Below, one piece after another: positions 1-8,575 of a stretch of 64,000 nucleotides of DNA. Positions within the stretch are counted from its first letter, which is position 1. The number at the start of each line of letters is the position of its first letter. Below the pieces are notes generated by a model that was given only the letters and a program-made list of their open reading frames with translations, did no database searches and was not told the origin of the DNA. Origin of the DNA: Planctomycetota bacterium (GTDB lineage: Bacteria; Planctomycetota; Phycisphaerae; WQYP01); NCBI GenBank assembly GCA_021851715.1, contig JAJZCR010000004.1, positions 8,703 to 72,702 of the forward strand, written 5' to 3'. The translations under genes and the position numbers were made by a program.

Positions 1-50
1 TGATCAACTTCTTCGAGAAGGACCTTCCAGTGGCGATATTCCAGGCCTGA
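1..50 (+). CDS. 3' end of an unseen upstream ORF (...INFFEKDLPVAIFQA*), partial at window edge
   Basis: Frame 3 is open from the window edge to TGA at 48-50. That stop overlaps the ATG at 50-52 (TGATG), a typical translational-coupling junction. No function can be assigned from 15 residues. Confidence 0.35.
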   Translation, partial: INFFEKDLPVAIFQA

Positions 51-508
51 TGGTTTTGGACGCGGCGGCAACTGTGGACTATTACCCAGCCAGATGGATT
101 GGACCAAAAGGACGAACGGGGTGCTATGTGGCGCGCAGAAACCCAGCCTACGGAGCCCCGTTATGGTGTTACGTACAGTTGGAAGACGGGGTAGCAAAAT
201 ACATGGTAGACTTTCCCACGAAAGGCAGCCGATGGAGAGGTTGCGATGAGGCATGGCATCTTCAAATGGCGATTGACGCCCATCGAGGAGTCCCTCAGAA
301 ATTTAAACTCTCCACGGCCCGCCCAGGTTCGTACGACCTACACATGTACTCGCCGTTGCCCATGTGGGCAGAGCGACGGTGGGAGGCGATTGGTACACGA
401 ATTGAAGCGGCCAACTGCTTGCTTGCGTTTCGTTTTCCACAGATTGAGATCGACGAGGAACGCCACTTCGCGGTTTCGTCGCTGTGGCTTGCACAGGTCG
501 GTGATTAG
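50..508 (+). CDS. Hypothetical 152-aa protein, orphan partner of the giant helicase
   Basis: This is a track ORF whose ATG overlaps the upstream stop, and it ends (TAG 506-508) 23 nt before the helicase ATG. It shares the helicase's atypical codon usage. It is Trp/Arg-rich with 4 Cys and has no TM segment, signal peptide or motif I recognise. Confidence 0.55.
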   Translation: MVLDAAATVDYYPARWIGPKGRTGCYVARRNPAYGAPLWCYVQLEDGVAKYMVDFPTKGSRWRGCDEAWHLQMAIDAHRGVPQKFKLSTARPGSYDLHMYSPLPMWAERRWEAIGTRIEAANCLLAFRFPQIEIDEERHFAVSSLWLAQVGD

Positions 509-531
509 AATTATACCAGTTGGAGTAATAT

Positions 532-3500
532 ATGTCGATGACAATTGGAGAGACGATTCAAGAGTTGCACACGGCACTTCGTGACTACATCGAAGCGACG
601 TATCACATCAGCAATCCGGTACTTGTGGAGCAGCGCCGTCAACTCCTGGAACAGCCGGGAATTATCCATCAAAAGCCATACCTGGAAAGTACGCCGCGGT
701 ACAACACTTCGAGCTCATTTGCTTCACTCGGCCTCGACTCCGCCGCGCTGGAGGTATTCTCTGACGTTTCAGAACAAAAGGGTGAGTTGGGCGTGCTCAT
801 CCATGATCCGCCGTATCAACATCAAGCGGCGGCAACGAAACTCGCGCTCGTGGATGGGCGCAGCCTTATGGTCATGACCGGGACGGGCTCGGGTAAGACG
901 GAATGCTTTCTGCTTCCGATTCTTGGAAAGCTCGCACGCGAGGCGAAAGGTAATGGGCCAGAATTCGGCCACACGTCTGCTGTTCGTGCCATGGTGCTTT
1001 ATCCGATGAACGCGCTCGTCAATGATCAACTCGGACGACTGCGGCTGCTATTTGGCGACCCGCGCATCGTCGAGCGCTTCATGAAGTGGTCGGGGCGGCC
1101 CGTACGTTTTGCACGCTACACAGGCCGAACCCTCTATCCAGGCGTTCGCGACGAAGACAAAGATAAAGAGCGCCTCGCACCCATAGGCAAGTATTACGTG
1201 GACAACCTTGAAATCGCTGGCGGTGCAACAAATCCTGGACAAGCCGCAGCGGCCAAGCTGGTTAACGAGTTGCAAAAGCGAGGAAAATGGCCATCGAAGC
1301 CCGACCTGGCCGCGTGGTACGGAAAGAAGAATGCGCGATGGCGTGATGCAAAGACCGGCGAATTCAAGCGATGCGTGACGTTGCCGTCTGATCCTGAACT
1401 GATCACCCGTCATGAAGTACAGGCGGCACCACCCGATGTACTGGTCACCAACTACTCGATGCTCGAGTACATGCTCATGCGGCCCCTTGAGCGGCCGATC
1501 TTCGATGCCACCCGAGATTGGCTGCAAGCGAATCCAGACGAAAGATTTCTGCTTGTTATCGACGAAGCTCACTTGTATCGCGGAGCGGGTGGCGCTGAAG
1601 TTGCGCTTCTTATTCGACGCTTACGCATGCGGCTCGGCATCCCCGCCGAACGTCTTCAGGTGATTTGCACAAGTGCCAGCTTTGAGGATGCGGATTACGC
1701 TGTCCAATTCGGCGCTCAACTCACCGGCAAAGAAGTTTCCGATTTCAGCCAAGTGCAAGGAGGCCTCAATTGGCGGCCTAACGCGGCCGCAGGCACAGCC
1801 GATGATGCCCAAGCACTCGTGGCCATCGACCTTCAACAATTCTACGATGCTGAATCCGACGCAATACGACTGAATCAGGTGAGGTCGTTCCTTGACTACA
1901 GGCATGTCGGCACCGGCTACGGCTTGCAGAAGGCCCTGCATGTGGCTCTCGCTTCATTTCCAGTGATGGCCCAACTAATCAACATCACCATGACTGAGGC
2001 CCAACCACTGGACGGGCTCGCTGACGCGCTCTTTCCGAATAGCCCAACCTTAGTTGCGGCGCACGCTGTCACAAATCTGATTGCGCTGGGCAGTATTGCC
2101 CGACCGTCGCCTTCCGAGCCGGGATTGCTACCTTGCCGGATTCATTCATTTTATCGCGGGTTACCTGGGCTTTGGGTCTGCATGGACCCAGACTGCACTG
2201 CTCTGCCAGCGCTACAGCGCGGCAGAATCTGCGGAAAGCTTTACGGACAACCGGTTGACGCGTGCAAGTGCGGTGCCCGAGTCCTTGAACTGTTCACATG
2301 TCGCGGTTGCGGAACCGCGTACGGTCGGGCATACACGAATGATGTTGAGTCGCCTGACTATCTCTGGTCGGAGGCGGGTAGTGCGTTCCGCACCTCGGCC
2401 GGCGATTTCGACGCACTATCACCAATAGACCTTCTTCTGGAGGAACCAAGCGACCGAGACGGGATTGAGCCAGCGGAATATGACCTCGTTACGGGTCGCC
2501 TAAACCCCAAGAAGCTTGGCAGCAGAAACCGGCAGGTCTTCATTCGCTCTGCCCGCGGCAATGCGCCTGACGATGACGACGGACCGCGCGCAGCAGCGCC
2601 AGGCGAATTCCGACCGTGTGCCGTGTGCGGAGAAACCGCGTCCTTTGGCCGCTCATCTGTCCAGGATCATCAGACCAAAGGAGATCAGCCATTCCAAGCG
2701 CTCATTGCGAAGCAGATTCAGGTTCAGCCCCCAAGCGCTGTGGCGGCCACAAACCTTGCACCGCTGCGGGGTCGCAAGGTTCTGATTTTCTCGGATTCTC
2801 GGCAAGTGGCAGCACGACTTGCGCCAAATCTTCAGACTTATTCCACGCAGGATGCAATGCGCCCCCTCATTTTGGCTGGATACGCAAAACTCTCAAACTC
2901 ACCGATTGTTGCCACTCTGCTTTCACTGGAAGATCTGTATCTCGGCGTGCTGATAGCCTCGAAGGAACTCGGAGTGCGGCTTCGTCCGGAACTGAAAGCT
3001 GGCGAGAGCTTCCAAGACGAGCTTGTTGTCGGAGAAGCCGTGAGAAATGGCGTCGTGTCGAAGGACACAGAGTTGCTGCAACTGTTCAATCAGTTGCGAG
3101 CGTCCGCGCCGCCAGAGTCTTTGTTGCGTGCCATTACGAAGTCGCTCGGTGATCGCTACTACGGACTGGAGTCGCTCGCTCTTGCCTCCTTGGTCGAGCG
3201 CGCCGCCCACACGGGCAAACTTCAAGCACTGCCCGACATTCCCGGCTATGCCGTTACGGCCGCAGAGAAGCTCGCACTCGCGCGAGCGTGGCTGCGCTGC
3301 TGGAACCGGCCCGGACTGTGGCTTAGTCGTATGCCTCCGGCATGGTGGCTCGTCGAAGTGCAATCGCATTCCGGCAAATTCAAGGACATCCAGCAACGAC
3401 TTCTGCCAGACAAAACCGCTCACAAAGTGTTTGAGCATGATTGGATTCCCAAGCTGCTCGCAATCTTTGCCGATCAAGTGTCACCGGGGAAATACCGGAT

Positions 3501-6072
3501 GAAAGGAAGCGAACTGTCGCTATTGATTGGCGGCAGTTGGTCGTACTGTCAATCATGCCGAACGGCGCAGCGCCCATTCCCCGGCCGTGCCACGTGCGTC
3601 AACTGCGGACACAATAAGGCACAACCCATTGATCCCAACACCGACACTGTCTTCGTGGCGAGAAAAAACTACTACCGAGCGAGCACCGTCAATGCTTTGC
3701 GGGACCCGCCAATTCCACCGATGGCATTGATCGCGGCGGAGCACACGGCGCAGCTAAATACGGCACAAGCCCAAGACGTTTTCTCCAAAGCCGAGGAGCA
3801 TGAGTTACTGTTTCAGGACGTAGATCTCGGCGGTGACAGCACCGGCCGTGACCGGCCTGCGATTGACGTGCTTTCCTGCACCACGACGATGGAAGTCGGA
3901 ATCGACATCGGAACTCTATCAGGCGTTTCGCTCAGAAACATGCCGCCGGCACGCGCCAACTACCAGCAACGTGCTGGCCGAGCTGGCCGCCGCGGCAATG
4001 CCGTAGCGACCGTAACGGCCTTCGGTAGCGCAGACAGCCATGATGAGCACTATTTCTCGAATCCCGACCAAATAATTCGCGGGGCGGTGGCCGATCCGAT
4101 TTTAACGCTCGCAAATTGCGAGATCGCCCGGCGCCACGTCACGGCGTATCTGCTTCAGCGTTACCACCAACACAAGCTGCCCAACATCCGTCCCGAGGAT
4201 CAGCCACATCTTTTTGCTGTTCTCGGCACCGTTTCGAGCTTCAAAGACGCCAATTCGGTCCTGAACCGTTCGGATCTTGGCGAGTGGCTTGCTGCGAATG
4301 AGCACATACTCAAGCAGGAGATACTTGCTTGGTTGCCTGCTGAGATACCACACGAAGACCGGCAGCACATGGCGGATGCGCTAATCACTGAGACGCTTCA
4401 GCCGATTGATGCGGCCATTGAATATGCTGCTGGCACCACACCGACAGTCGGCAGTTCAGGACCGCAACAAGGTAGCCCGGATGCACCGGTTTCAGAGGTC
4501 CAGGACGAAGAAGGTGAAGAATGTTCGGTTCAAAATGGAGCCTCGGAAAATCTGCTCGATCGGCTCCTCTACAAAGGCGTGCTCCCGAGGTATGCATTTC
4601 CAACAGACGTGTCCGCGTTTCATGTCTTTGATCCCGAGCGGTCAACAAAATACAGGCCTGCGTTTCGCTTTACTCCGTCGCAGGGTTTACCAGTCGCGCT
4701 TTCAACATACGCCCCAGGCAAAGAAGTCTGGATCGGTAGTAAGCTCTGGACATCGGGGGCGATCTATTCGCCGATTTCGAGCGATCGGTATCGGGCTTGG
4801 GAAGCCCGGCGATATTACTACGAGTGTCGGTACTGCCATTATGCTCGCACGACGAGCATGACGGAGGGAACGCGTGGCGAAGTGAAGGATTGCGAGGCTT
4901 GTGGCAAGGCCGGCACATTCGGGCCAGCCACCTATTGGCTCCGACCACCAGGCTTCGCTCATCCAGTATTTAAGGAAGAAGGAACCTCTCCCGACGATCA
5001 GCCGGCTCGCAGCTATGCTACGCGAGCGAAACTGGCGATGCCGACGCCGCCCGATGAGGCCAAGTGGATCAGACTCAACGACCATGTCCGTGTCTACGGC
5101 ACACGGCAGCATCTTCTTGTGACAAACCGCGGACCTCGTGGGGAAGGCTATACCTACTGCACCAAATGCGGGCTGATTGAACCGACGGCTCTACCCAACG
5201 GGATAGTCGGCGCTGCGCATCGTAAACCATTTCCAGATTTGAAGGAGCCGATGTGTCCCGGTGGCGGAGCCACCCGTGGTATGGTGCTCGGCACGGACTT
5301 TATCAGCGACGTCCTCTTGATTTCCCTCAATATAGACGCGCCGTTAATGCTTCTTCCCGGATTGCTTGCAACCGATGTCGCGCTGCGAACGGTCAGTGAG
5401 GCTCTCACCAAAGCAGCTTGCCTCCGGCTCGAGTTGGAAGCGAACGAGTTGCAGGCCGAGTACCGGCCCGCGTTGACGCCCGACGGCCGCGAGGGTCGCG
5501 AGGCCGAAATCTACCTATATGACACGCTTTCCGGAGGAGCCGGGTTCGCTCAGCGCGTCGGGAAGCTCGGGCCCGCGGTGTTCGAAGATGCGCTTGGGAT
5601 TCTCCGGAATTGTCCGGCGAATTGCGACAGGTCGTGTTACCGCTGTTTGCGAAGCTACAAGAACAAGTTTGAACATGATCTTCTCGATCGTCACGTCGGT
5701 GCAAGTCTCCTCCGCTTCGTCCTACACAACGAGGTTCCGGCCGTGACGCCGGATCGCCTTGAACGCTCCACAGAATTGCTTTTTCAGGACTTGGAACGCC
5801 AAGGGGTCGATGGCCTGACGCTGACCAGAAACGCGGTAGTATCCGTGCCAGGTCTGCCGAACGTGGTAGCGCCGATACTCGCAACCACTGCTGCCGGCCA
5901 GCGAATGGTGATCGGGCTGCATGGCCCGCTGACCCCGGGCACTCTGGACGACGATGCGTTGACTCAACTGAAAAAGTTGCCCCTTGCTGTTCCGGTTGAG
6001 GCAATTGATGAGCTTGTTGTTCGTAGAAATCTTCCCAGCGCGACCGCTTCGCTTCTGTCAAAACTTGGATGA
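532..6072 (+). CDS. Giant SF2 DEAH-box helicase with multiple Zn-ribbons and C-terminal DUF1998/MrfA-type Zn-binding domain (DruE-like / DrmA+DrmB-fusion-like)
   Basis: GGAG lies at 522-525, 6 nt before ATG 532. N-lobe motifs: Q-motif PYQHQ, Walker A MTGTGSGKTE (GTGSGKT = nt 877-897), LYPMNALVNDQ, TNYSMLEY, DEAH box VIDEAHLYRG (DEAH = nt 1561-1572) and TSAS. C-lobe motifs: RecA2 entry KVLIFSDSRQ (aa ~750), motif V TTTMEVGIDIG and motif VI QQRAGRAGRRG (nt 3964-3996). The C-terminal DUF1998-type block is YLYDTLSGGAGF...CPANCDRSCYRCLRSYKNKFEH (nt 5611-5676). Confidence 0.85.
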   Translation: MSMTIGETIQELHTALRDYIEATYHISNPVLVEQRRQLLEQPGIIHQKPYLESTPRYNTSSSFASLGLDSAALEVFSDVSEQKGELGVLIHDPPYQHQAAATKLALVDGRSLMVMTGTGSGKTECFLLPILGKLAREAKGNGPEFGHTSAVRAMVLYPMNALVNDQLGRLRLLFGDPRIVERFMKWSGRPVRFARYTGRTLYPGVRDEDKDKERLAPIGKYYVDNLEIAGGATNPGQAAAAKLVNELQKRGKWPSKPDLAAWYGKKNARWRDAKTGEFKRCVTLPSDPELITRHEVQAAPPDVLVTNYSMLEYMLMRPLERPIFDATRDWLQANPDERFLLVIDEAHLYRGAGGAEVALLIRRLRMRLGIPAERLQVICTSASFEDADYAVQFGAQLTGKEVSDFSQVQGGLNWRPNAAAGTADDAQALVAIDLQQFYDAESDAIRLNQVRSFLDYRHVGTGYGLQKALHVALASFPVMAQLINITMTEAQPLDGLADALFPNSPTLVAAHAVTNLIALGSIARPSPSEPGLLPCRIHSFYRGLPGLWVCMDPDCTALPALQRGRICGKLYGQPVDACKCGARVLELFTCRGCGTAYGRAYTNDVESPDYLWSEAGSAFRTSAGDFDALSPIDLLLEEPSDRDGIEPAEYDLVTGRLNPKKLGSRNRQVFIRSARGNAPDDDDGPRAAAPGEFRPCAVCGETASFGRSSVQDHQTKGDQPFQALIAKQIQVQPPSAVAATNLAPLRGRKVLIFSDSRQVAARLAPNLQTYSTQDAMRPLILAGYAKLSNSPIVATLLSLEDLYLGVLIASKELGVRLRPELKAGESFQDELVVGEAVRNGVVSKDTELLQLFNQLRASAPPESLLRAITKSLGDRYYGLESLALASLVERAAHTGKLQALPDIPGYAVTAAEKLALARAWLRCWNRPGLWLSRMPPAWWLVEVQSHSGKFKDIQQRLLPDKTAHKVFEHDWIPKLLAIFADQVSPGKYRMKGSELSLLIGGSWSYCQSCRTAQRPFPGRATCVNCGHNKAQPIDPNTDTVFVARKNYYRASTVNALRDPPIPPMALIAAEHTAQLNTAQAQDVFSKAEEHELLFQDVDLGGDSTGRDRPAIDVLSCTTTMEVGIDIGTLSGVSLRNMPPARANYQQRAGRAGRRGNAVATVTAFGSADSHDEHYFSNPDQIIRGAVADPILTLANCEIARRHVTAYLLQRYHQHKLPNIRPEDQPHLFAVLGTVSSFKDANSVLNRSDLGEWLAANEHILKQEILAWLPAEIPHEDRQHMADALITETLQPIDAAIEYAAGTTPTVGSSGPQQGSPDAPVSEVQDEEGEECSVQNGASENLLDRLLYKGVLPRYAFPTDVSAFHVFDPERSTKYRPAFRFTPSQGLPVALSTYAPGKEVWIGSKLWTSGAIYSPISSDRYRAWEARRYYYECRYCHYARTTSMTEGTRGEVKDCEACGKAGTFGPATYWLRPPGFAHPVFKEEGTSPDDQPARSYATRAKLAMPTPPDEAKWIRLNDHVRVYGTRQHLLVTNRGPRGEGYTYCTKCGLIEPTALPNGIVGAAHRKPFPDLKEPMCPGGGATRGMVLGTDFISDVLLISLNIDAPLMLLPGLLATDVALRTVSEALTKAACLRLELEANELQAEYRPALTPDGREGREAEIYLYDTLSGGAGFAQRVGKLGPAVFEDALGILRNCPANCDRSCYRCLRSYKNKFEHDLLDRHVGASLLRFVLHNEVPAVTPDRLERSTELLFQDLERQGVDGLTLTRNAVVSVPGLPNVVAPILATTAAGQRMVIGLHGPLTPGTLDDDALTQLKKLPLAVPVEAIDELVVRRNLPSATASLLSKLG

Positions 6073-6082
6073 CGGGCAACGG

Positions 6083-6316
6083 ATGATGAGCACGGCAATT
6101 CCAACGACAACGTGGCCTTGGACAGCGACTTCGCCAACTTCGTGGCCCAACGCGCCGGACGATTTAACTTTTAGCGCGCTGAAGGAAATAGAGACGTGTC
6201 CCCGCCGCTGGGCTTTGGCTTGGACGAGTTATCCCTCGCTTTGGGGTGATCGCGGATATCCCCCGAAACCCAACATCCGAGCCCTTGCCGGAATCATAGT
6301 GCACACTGTGCTGTAA
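6083..6316 (+). pseudogene. N-terminal stub of a Cas4/RecB/AddB-like PD-(D/E)XK nuclease, truncated by in-frame stops
   Basis: It starts 10 nt after the helicase stop. It encodes ...PDDLTFSALKEIETCPRRWAL...GIIVHTVL*, which resembles the Cys-containing N-terminal helix and the GxxxH motif of Cas4-type nucleases. TAA at 6314-6316 and a second TAA at 6335-6337 end the frame, and no D...(D/E)xK core follows. It could alternatively be an intact 77-aa ORF. Confidence 0.45.
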
Positions 6317-6648
6317 TCCATTACCAAGGAACTGTAAACGCCGGGTGCCCGTCGGTGCTTGACGCCTCTGCCGTCGTGGTGCGTCGGTGCTGGGGACCGT
6401 CACCTATTAAATACCGGCGTGCAATTTGCCTTTCCTTGGCCTTCCGGGGGGGTAGTGCGCGCAAGGGTCGTCCGACAAGTTTCTCAAGTTTACTCATGGT
6501 GCTGTCACCGGGCAGCGGCCGGCCGGTTGGCGTGGCCCGGCGACGCATCGCGATTTCTCTTGGATCGTCGGGCTGCCGGAGGAAAGCCTGCCACGCCTGC
6601 GGAGTCGGCCGGGGTCTGCTGACACCGTTGGTGTTCGCCACGGCTGGA

Positions 6649-6800
6649 GGGACCCAGCCGGCTACGGCAGGCTGGACGGGAGACGGGCGGTCCCGATTGG
6701 CGACTCCTGTCACATCGGGATTTCGGCATCCATGCCTCAACGGCGGGGACGCCTGCATCACAAAACAGGAGCATCGCCGGAGAGTGCGGGGGCGGGTTTC
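6649..6800 (+). repeat. Diverged copy (A) of a dispersed intergenic repeat element
   Basis: GGGACCCAGCCGGCTACGG (6649-6667) matches 17449-17467 with 2 mismatches. The hairpin TCCCGAT (6691-6697) / ATCGGGA (6714-6720) is followed by TTTCGGCATCCATGCCTCAACGGC, which matches 17413-17444 with 3 mismatches and 1 indel. The tail to 6800 aligns only loosely with 17449-17506. Confidence 0.4.
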
Positions 6801-8346
6801 AGGGCACAAGCGCCGCCAGGGCTTCCACATCGCCGGAGGTTTCATCCGTCACCCCGTGCGACTCATGGCGCTGGGGGACGGTAGGACCGTACTGGGCATT
6901 TTCCCGACCGGCGTGCACATCTTCGCGCACCTGCTGGAGGCCCTTAAAAATATCCGCAGCCGAACGATAGGTGGCGCTGGCCCCGTCCATCGGGCGGAGA
7001 ACAGCCTCCGTGAGCCGCTTGATCAGCCGGGCTTCCAGAGTTCGCGGACCAAACCGCACCAACCCCCGGAAATCCGGATTGCCGTGCGGCTTATTGAACT
7101 GGACCGCCAGATAAAATAAATCCACGGCCTTGTCCACCTTGTGATGGCCGTCGCTGAGCACGCGCGATGTCACCAGCCCCTGATCTTTCATCTGGCCGAG
7201 CATGCGCTGAATCTGGCTGGTGCGCATCATTTCCTCAAAGAGTGTGGACAAAAGCGAATTGTCCGCGAACTTTTCGCCCACCCGCACCGCCGAGCCAAAG
7301 TCAATGAAGCCCACGCCGTGCTGGGTAACCACAAAATTATCCAAACGCAGATCCAGGTGAATCACGCCGATTTTGTCATGCATCACGGCCAGCAATTCCG
7401 CCGCCTGCGAACAAAAATCCAGTTGGGACAGCCCGGCCCCGCCGTTGCGCATCCAGTTCATGTACAACGTGCGCACGAAACCGCGGGAATCGTGCTCGAC
7501 CCCCAAACACCGCGGCACGCGATTTTTGTATGGTTCGGGCAGATCTCGCTCCAGGATCTTGAGCATGGCCGCTTCCCGTGTCAGAAAGACCGGGAATATC
7601 TTTTCCGTGAACTTTCCCGCCCGCCGCCGGATGTCATCCATGGACGCATCCGGAAATCGTTCCTGCAGCCGGGCCATCACCCGGTCAATGGTGGGCACAC
7701 GCTTCACCACCACATAATTTTCATCCTCGGCATGCCGTTTGGCCAATTGCACGTGATACGTAAAACGATCGGACGATTGTCCGGGTTTGATCAGGTCCAC
7801 CTTCCGCACCACAAAATAATGGACCTTTCTGGACCAGGGCAGCGGCAAGCGGCGTACGCGCGTCACCGGCACATCGATGAGAAACCCCGCCCACCGTCTG
7901 TAACGCTGGGCTAAGTTATGCACGGCCTTTTGATCATCGGAGAAAAAAATCACCCGCCCGCCCCACCGCAGGCTAGAAAATAATTCATCCGGAGTCGCAT
8001 TTTCATTGGCGGGGATAAACAGATGGTAAGTCAACCCGCGCTGATCACCGCTGAAACCATCCGGCAGCGTCTGCAGATATTCGCGGTCATGGTCAAATAC
8101 TTTGTGCTGTAAAACGGGAACCAGCGGCGAAGAGTCCGCCAGTTTAAGCAAGCGGTCCAGAATTACAGAATCATGTGTCGGCATCATATTCAGCCCACCT
8201 GTGAAAACGTCCAGGTCTGATACCGCGTCCTGCTCGAAATTTCCGTCCTTGGCATTGCAGCCGGTATTCTCTACCTGGTCCTTTTCCCGGCGCTGCAGGG
8301 TCGAAGCCTCTTCAGGAACCCCGTCTTTCATCGGTGAGCTATTCAT
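6799..8346 (-). CDS. Atypical protein-kinase-like protein (Kdo/WaaP/RIO-like catalytic loop) with an uncharacterised ~250-aa N-terminal domain
   Basis: The catalytic loop is VIHLDLRLDNFVV (HxDxxxxN), the DFG-type motif is GFIDFGSA, and there is a VVVKRV Lys candidate. Codon usage is host-like. The start is uncertain: ATG at 8346 (MNSSPMKDG) or GTG at 8409. Confidence 0.7.
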   Translation of the reverse strand: MNSSPMKDGVPEEASTLQRREKDQVENTGCNAKDGNFEQDAVSDLDVFTGGLNMMPTHDSVILDRLLKLADSSPLVPVLQHKVFDHDREYLQTLPDGFSGDQRGLTYHLFIPANENATPDELFSSLRWGGRVIFFSDDQKAVHNLAQRYRRWAGFLIDVPVTRVRRLPLPWSRKVHYFVVRKVDLIKPGQSSDRFTYHVQLAKRHAEDENYVVVKRVPTIDRVMARLQERFPDASMDDIRRRAGKFTEKIFPVFLTREAAMLKILERDLPEPYKNRVPRCLGVEHDSRGFVRTLYMNWMRNGGAGLSQLDFCSQAAELLAVMHDKIGVIHLDLRLDNFVVTQHGVGFIDFGSAVRVGEKFADNSLLSTLFEEMMRTSQIQRMLGQMKDQGLVTSRVLSDGHHKVDKAVDLFYLAVQFNKPHGNPDFRGLVRFGPRTLEARLIKRLTEAVLRPMDGASATYRSAADIFKGLQQVREDVHAGRENAQYGPTVPQRHESHGVTDETSGDVEALAALVP

Positions 8347-8575
8347 ACGCGCATCAGGAAAATAACGCCCGCCGCGGATGAAGGCAGTTCGCCGCCAACA
8401 TCCCGGCACTGGGCCATTATGCCCGGTTTTCCGCGGATAACCAAATTATTTTGCCAAACCGACGACATTATAGGATGCCTAGACGTGCCAATACGGCAGT
8501 CCACCACGGCGGGTGGGTTTTATACGCCCCGGAGTATTTTTTGGTTTCCGGACCTGACTGCGGCGGGAACCTGTT

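Follow-up and report, generated by a model that had tools for sequence, protein, structure and literature searches.

The helicase operon at the left edge of the window

We analysed a 64,000-nt stretch of contig JAJZCR010000004.1 from a Planctomycetota bacterium (assembly GCA_021851715.1), referred to here as the window. Its left end carries, on the forward strand, the 3' part of druD (2-508), an intact druE (532-6072) and the remnant of a nuclease gene (6083-6375). Positions 1-6375 are very probably the 3' half of a horizontally acquired operon of about 11.7 kb that belongs to the Druantia type I family and comprises druA, a gene here called X, druD, druE and a dead nuclease gene. A first-pass annotation, made from the letters of the window alone, had described a helicase-centred defence operon with a DruE-like core that continued beyond base 1, and this description was borne out.

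DruE is a superfamily 2 (SF2) helicase of the YprA/MrfA family, with GSGKT at residue 119 and DEAH at residue 344. The 5541-nt open reading frame (ORF) encodes 1846 amino acids (aa), in agreement with the more than 1800 predicted, and its product contains DEAD (PF00270), Helicase_C and MZB/DUF1998 (PF09369, residues 1622-1706) domains, the last of which had also been foreseen. The PADLOC model DruE1 (PDLC00013) matched it from profile position 4 to 1773 of 1776 (E = 0, 1946 bits), whereas the competing models DruE2, DruE3 and DruE4 all scored 652 bits or less (DruE2, the next best, 652 bits; DruE3, at most 574 bits). Moreover, the DruE chains 9tu7 and 9wae of the PDB matched at 6e-82 and 6e-67, respectively. 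A DruE of this kind, YprA-like, about 1800 aa long and best fitted by DruE1, is a membership feature of type I. Direct reading of the sequence confirmed the ribosome-binding site GGAG (522-525), 6 nt before the druE ATG at 532, as well as a 10-nt gap between the druE stop codon (6070-6072) and the next ATG at 6083.

Two other assignments of the helicase were weighed: a housekeeping repair helicase of the MrfA/YprA type, and a DrmA/DrmB part of DISARM, to which the first-pass annotation had drawn a likeness. The SF2 core and MZB/DUF1998 are common to MrfA (PDB 6znp, 1e-14, partial match), and DrmA models gave weak matches of about 40 bits. These DrmA matches lay at the helicase C domain, and the models of DrmA, DpdJ and Cas3 recognised only short helicase motifs. 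The protein has 1846 aa vs 751 aa for MrfA, DruE1 is its best model by a wide margin, its partners are DruA and DruD, its composition is foreign, and its relatives occur in mobile and defence contexts. In addition, MrfB, DrmB, DrmC and a methyltransferase are absent from the operon, and a single protein carries both helicase and MZB, unlike in DISARM. Both assignments are already contradicted, and we give them next to no weight. PADLOC also found no partners of types II, III or IV (DruM/DruF/DruG, DruH and DruF/DruL, respectively) among the operon proteins.

An exact-protein look-up of DruE retrieved three public contigs. The longest, DAHZYE010000009.1 (hereafter L001; metagenome-assembled genome (MAG) GCA_027435975.1), showed 0 mismatches to the window over 16072 shared nt and added 9469 nt leftward. 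The gene order upstream on L001 is druA (403 aa), X (963 aa) and druD (356 aa), followed by druE. Because X and druD are joined by an ATGA overlap and the spacers measure 10-30 nt, we regard these genes as a single operon. DruA (L001 4777-5988, left of the window) matched PADLOC DruA1 (PDLC00002) at 9e-177 and Pfam PF14236 at 7.8e-79; the DUF4338/PF14236 protein that heads canonical type I operons is thus present at the operon head on this identical contig.

The window holds the last 168 codons of druD and its stop codon TAG (506-508), and the gene starts 562 nt to the left of the window. The fragment matched PADLOC DruD1 (PDLC00010) at 3e-55 over profile positions 206-353 of 359. Frame 2 is open back to base 2 and the profile match is partial; therefore, the ORF once read as a 152-aa orphan encodes only the C-terminal end of a longer protein, the 356-aa DruD. 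The complete protein (L001 8907-9977) matched PDLC00010 in one stretch (4.7e-108) and PDLC00012, also a DruD1 model, at 6e-93. Its place immediately upstream of druE is a further membership feature of type I. The earlier count of four packed co-directional ORFs was wrong, the frame-3 ORF ending at 48-50 being spurious. The TGATG motif at 48-52 does exist, but it lies inside druD, where the ATG at 50 encodes an internal Met, and is not a stop/start overlap. Canonical DruD fits a different model (PDLC00009), and DruD of R. solanacearum matched PDLC00010 at only 2e-5. An hhalign comparison of the DruD subfamily found here with canonical DruD gave a probability of 74% (E = 2.7e-5, 234 columns), which points to a remote relation. 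A search of PDB sequences with DruD returned nothing usable.

Protein X and the downstream nuclease

Druantia type I was reportedly set out by Doron et al. in 2018 as DruA-DruB-DruC-DruD-DruE. For comparison, canonical five-gene loci were taken from R. solanacearum UW163 (plasmid pUW163a) and P. putida (pKF715A), both found by tblastn of DruE vs plasmids, and from Enterobacter hormaechei and P. aeruginosa, both reached via DruC homologues. A distant-mode blastn search of gammaproteobacterial druE vs 5,426 E. coli genomes gave no match. DruB, DruC and DruD of the canonical loci matched PDLC00005, PDLC00006 and PDLC00009 at 1e-116 to 1e-272. A ScoMcrA-like HNH restriction gene stands beside the Enterobacter system (L094 20748-21617).

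No gene of our operon was of the DruB type (PDLC00005, with a CoiA_N motif) or of the DruC type (PDLC00006), whereas control DruB proteins scored 4e-203 and 6e-230 and control DruC proteins 2e-257 and 6e-272. X itself matched nothing in PADLOC, even at E ≤ 10, nor in NCBIfam, Pfam or PDB sequences. BLASTP and phmmer detected no similarity between X and DruB or DruC of R. solanacearum and P. putida or their families, and hhalign gave probabilities of 0.6% for X vs DruB and 0.2% for X vs DruC (profiles of 72 X, 65 DruB and 117 DruC sequences). The AlphaFold model of an X homologue (predicted local distance difference test score 83.6, predicted template-modelling score 0.43) comprised helical N-terminal, tandem beta-sandwich and helical C-terminal domains. 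An argument that treats DruB as a nuclease was set aside, since Pfam supports only its small CoiA_N motif.

Were X a diverged or fused DruB plus DruC, the locus would be an ordinary canonical DruABCDE system. DruA is 52-54% and DruE 33% identical to their canonical counterparts, PADLOC assigns both to the models that also fit the R. solanacearum and P. putida systems, X occupies the DruB/DruC position, and PADLOC already files the DruD subfamily found here under DruD1. However, X (963 aa) is shorter than DruB and DruC together (about 1100-1180 aa), shows no similarity to either by the three methods above, and lacks both CoiA_N, the motif of DruB, and a coiled-coil signal like that of DruC, its model containing beta-sandwich arrays instead. 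We therefore consider a disguised DruABCDE system quite improbable. As far as sequence comparison reaches, X is a conserved protein that fills the slots of DruB and DruC and has no detectable relation to either, which gives the locus a non-canonical sub-architecture within type I Druantia. The first-pass annotation had expected non-canonical partners and had held that canonical DruA-D upstream would make the system a known one. After leftward extension of the contig, a DruA and a DruD were indeed recognised upstream, so the partners are not wholly non-canonical; the non-canonical element there is the unrelated 963-aa protein in the DruB/DruC slots.

The last ORF of the operon comprises 77 codons, and its product alone matched no family. 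In the closest relatives, locus L006 (DruE 92% identical) and Planctomycetes bacterium syqfu (79%), druE is followed, after a spacer of 11-18 nt, by an intact gene for a PDDEXK_1 protein of 409-411 aa. With the 411-aa L006 nuclease as query, tblastn aligned residues 14-81 with 6131-6334 (78% identity) across an in-frame TAA at 6314-6316, and residues 82-95 with 6334-6375 in another frame, indicating a frameshift near 6334. Past residue 95, the query had no tblastn match in the window beyond 6375, the 3' three quarters of the gene being deleted. The remnant corresponds to residues ~1-95 of ~410; it contains no catalytic motif and keeps only the first Cys. Since nuclease homology runs on to about 6375, the block does not end at the sharp junction formerly placed at 6320-6340.

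Intact homologues matched PF12705 (PDDEXK_1) at 1.9e-17, PADLOC DruK at 1e-12 and Cas4 at 3e-9. Nine residues were conserved in at least 90% of 32 intact homologues (C39, D200, D213, K215, Q226, Y230, C301, C304 and C310), so that a RecB-type motif and four Cys are present in these proteins; the window copy lacks the motif and all but the first Cys. Judged by these motifs, the intact family is a Cas4/AddB-type iron-sulfur (Fe-S) nuclease. It shares D...D-x-K, Q-x3-Y and the C...CX2CX5C cluster with Cas4/AddB-type Fe-S nucleases and DruK, whereas it differs from true Cas4 in its length of ~410 aa with extra N- and C-terminal regions and in its TIGR00372 score (30 bits, cut-off 65). The first-pass annotation had noted a Cas4-like PD-(D/E)XK nuclease that would fit the logic of an immune effector. 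Such a gene does belong downstream of druE in this lineage, but what the window holds is a pseudogene cut short, not an effector. Of the 72 related loci whose downstream sequence is long enough, 34 carry the nuclease after druE; among the 28 members of the DruE clade to which the window belongs (DruE identity of 69% or more), 22 do. Partial nuclease matches were seen at L008 8718-8867 (a Phycisphaerae MAG, residues 7-56) and L058 16624-17279 (an Acidobacteriota MAG, residues 2-220).

The dead nuclease gene might mark the loss of the whole system, the locus being a decaying relic that provides no defence. Its nonsense codon, frameshift and 3' deletion fit such a history, as do the prevalence of an intact nuclease in the closest clade (the 22 of 28 loci) and signs of decay elsewhere, namely IS21 and IS3 in Sinorhizobium plasmid copies and the partial nucleases of L008 and L058. 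By contrast, druA, X, druD and druE are all full length like their relatives. DruE is under purifying selection vs L006 (proportions of nonsynonymous and synonymous differences 0.03-0.04 and 0.17-0.22, respectively; ratio of nonsynonymous to synonymous rates ~0.1), and the nuclease is naturally absent from 36 of the 72 loci, including a plasmid copy. A dead relic is thus unlikely, although it deserves more weight than the other alternatives. For this genome, the result is a modest one, namely a defence operon of foreign origin in which one gene is dead.

Foreign composition, recombination and island borders

The codon choice of the block, described as deviant by eye in the first-pass annotation, was quantified. 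The codon log-likelihood per codon under host usage was 1.29-1.40 for druA, X, druD and druE vs 1.07 ± 0.06 (maximum 1.23) for 28 host ORFs, and each of the four genes lay beyond all 28 (z = 3.4-5.1). Specifically, Leu-CTG made up 23% in the operon vs 52% in the host, and Ala-GCC 28% vs 51%. The guanine-plus-cytosine (GC) content at third codon positions was 0.53-0.60 vs ~0.66. The tetranucleotide distance was likewise raised across the operon (z ≈ 7-9) and reached the background level by the 5.5-8.5 kb interval. Codon usage and tetranucleotide composition agree, and the foreign origin claimed earlier was upheld.

Nucleotide identity to L006 was 62-79% from druA through X and druD to ~1.1 kb inside druE, and 88-95% over the remainder of that gene. 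The switch is best placed at base ~1627 (codon ~365), just downstream of DEAH (aa 344), within a breakpoint interval of 1470-1710 on the forward strand; around it, identity to L006 was 75% on the left and 92.5% on the right. The synonymous p-distance vs L006 was 0.78 (saturated) over codons 1-365 and 0.17-0.22 over codons 366-1846, whereas synonymous divergence vs four other relatives was saturated throughout druE. This pattern of divergence indicates recombination within druE, not rate variation. The block of druA, X, druD and druE codons 1-365 may have been exchanged as one unit, and such a natural chimaera would show how much of DruE moves together with its partners.

At its right end, the island passes into host DNA through a junction zone (6376-6670) in which the GC content climbs to 0.62-0.66 and Logan contigs end. 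No tRNA genes, integrase or convincing flanking direct repeats were found at the island borders. Because tblastx of window positions 6300-8500 vs all loci gave no match, no further island remnants are assigned past the nuclease stub. A search via right-flank proteins found no empty-site contig. In the Logan sample SRR13201268, the assembly breaks at ~-5090 (L001 ~4379) and at ~6638-6667; the island forms a separate contig of 11.8 kb, and the host flank lies on a second one that extends ~30 nt into it before ending. A branch in the assembly graph could explain these breaks, in which case the island may be polymorphic for presence or absence at either end.

Several neighbouring features were also recorded. 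The high-GC junction is covered by a 169-aa ORF with no family match (6321-6830, reverse strand), which runs antisense to part of the nuclease stub. Its neighbour (6799-8346, reverse strand) encodes 515 aa with only weak APH/protein-kinase matches (5.5e-5). Upstream of the island, an apparently non-coding, repeat-rich stretch (L001 2600-3400, window ~-6870 to -6070) contains two 79-nt copies that are 95% identical, two identical copies of 22 nt, and an array of CAAGGNGGC that has a period of 9 nt and a strong GC skew.

Related loci and known Druantia systems

A DruD-anchored scan with one genome per species returned 171 relatives, of which 80 loci were kept, and X stood beside druD and druE in all 80. 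The titles of these loci name Planctomycetes, Dehalococcoidia/Chloroflexota, Acidobacteria, Polyangiales/Myxococcaceae, Nitrospirales, and Gamma- and Alphaproteobacteria, among others. Additionally, a scan of viral contigs for DruD gave 4 loci, all of the X type. A profile of X recovered 1545 cluster representatives at 50% identity; a word-index search recovered 74 DruB and 136 DruC clusters, in which all given organism names were proteobacterial, but this search is less sensitive than a profile and the contrast with X is indicative only. These observations suggest that DruA, DruD and DruE are the invariant core of such loci, and that X is the middle module in the majority of relatives from public genomes and metagenomes, often with a stand-alone Cas4-like nuclease. 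Annotation tools have no model of X, so such loci may be under-called. Literature searches on DruB/DruC/DruD or DruK found no description of an X-containing architecture.

Relatives were located on plasmids and beside integrases, toxin-antitoxin systems, prophage genes and restriction genes. The Nitrosococcus plasmid pNWAT01 (L004) carries druA-X-druD-druE and no nuclease, with a dGTPase and MazF/RelE toxins beside it (L004 2816-4183 and neighbours). On S. medicae plasmids (L005, Sinorhizobium), the insertion sequences IS21 and IS3 disrupt X/druD and druE. A six-gene X-type version occurs in the Halotalea, Castellaniella and Desulfobulbus loci (L021 3293-6951, L071 and L017), where a long DruA (683 aa, PADLOC PDLC00001) is preceded, with a 4-nt overlap, by a 536-aa GHKL ATPase (HATPase_c_3, MzaB-like, 1e-20). 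At L043 16930-17961 (a candidatus Porisulfidus MAG), a DruA-like match (39% identity) lies downstream and not upstream of druE.

To our knowledge, type III is the only Druantia type with a worked-out mechanism, and type I, whose range of action is among the widest of the defence systems tried in E. coli, has been studied only in its proteobacterial five-gene form. Type III DruE binds exposed single-stranded DNA and unwinds it 3'->5' (10.64898/2026.05.13.724758; 10.64898/2026.05.12.722862). By analogy, the DruE described here would engage invading DNA where single strands are exposed and unwind it 3'->5' at the expense of ATP. DruA, X and DruD could form a sensing or regulatory module coupled to the N-terminal RecA1 part of DruE. 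The Cas4-like nuclease, where present, would then degrade the unwound strand. Because the C-terminal Vsr-like domain of type I DruE is predicted to be inactive (PMC12458937), the nuclease would supply the cleavage that this helicase lacks, and it is a candidate effector. If the system works at all in the present genome, it would do so as a four-gene core, the form also found in half of the related loci.

Taken further, druA-X-druD'-druE, with or without a Cas4-like nuclease, could be a distinct, unnamed Druantia subtype that outnumbers DruABCDE by cluster counts in environmental bacteria. In it, X would replace DruB and DruC as a sensor or scaffold, the Fe-S nuclease would supply cleavage, and recombination after DEAH would swap a partner-plus-RecA1 module and so diversify specificity. 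We hold this reading to be possible and offer it tentatively. Several points weigh against our account of the operon as a whole. L006 is the one close relative from which the recombination pattern is drawn. With its nuclease decayed, the present copy may be inactive; half of the related loci have no nuclease, so this protein may be an accessory and not an effector. The role of X is a guess: Foldseek of its model vs the PDB returned only generic Ig/FN3/macroglobulin folds (template-modelling score ~0.1). The functional data we know of were all obtained with DruABCDE or with type III. Finally, type I of E. coli provides very broad defence and has been linked to N6-methyladenine (m6A) (10.1101/2024.04.14.589459), yet the operon contains no candidate methyltransferase.

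Among known systems, the MrfA-MrfB (YprA-YprB) repair pair resembles the locus in that a YprA-family helicase is encoded beside a separate nuclease, but the helicase here is much larger and multidomain, the nuclease has another fold, and the context is one of mobile defence with DruA, X and DruD. Type III Druantia (DruH-DruE) likewise has a large YprA-family DruE with Zn-binding modules and MZB; unlike it, our operon lacks DruH, and type III DruE carries C-terminal PLD domains. The closest likeness in DruA and in full-length, DruE1-type DruE, at the identities given above, is with canonical type I, in which a DruD-family protein is also encoded directly upstream of druE in a tight, co-directional operon with a mobile or defence context. 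There are also differences: DruD is only remotely related to its canonical counterpart, DruB (~550 aa, CoiA_N) and DruC (~625 aa, coiled-coil) are replaced by the single unrelated X of ~960 aa, and a Cas4-like nuclease often follows druE in X loci, whereas it does so in none of the four canonical loci examined. Moreover, the X form has a far broader phyletic range, with Planctomycetota, Chloroflexota, Acidobacteriota, Myxococcota, Nitrospirota and Pseudomonadota among the groups that appear in the titles of its loci, whereas the named homologues of DruB and DruC come from Proteobacteria.

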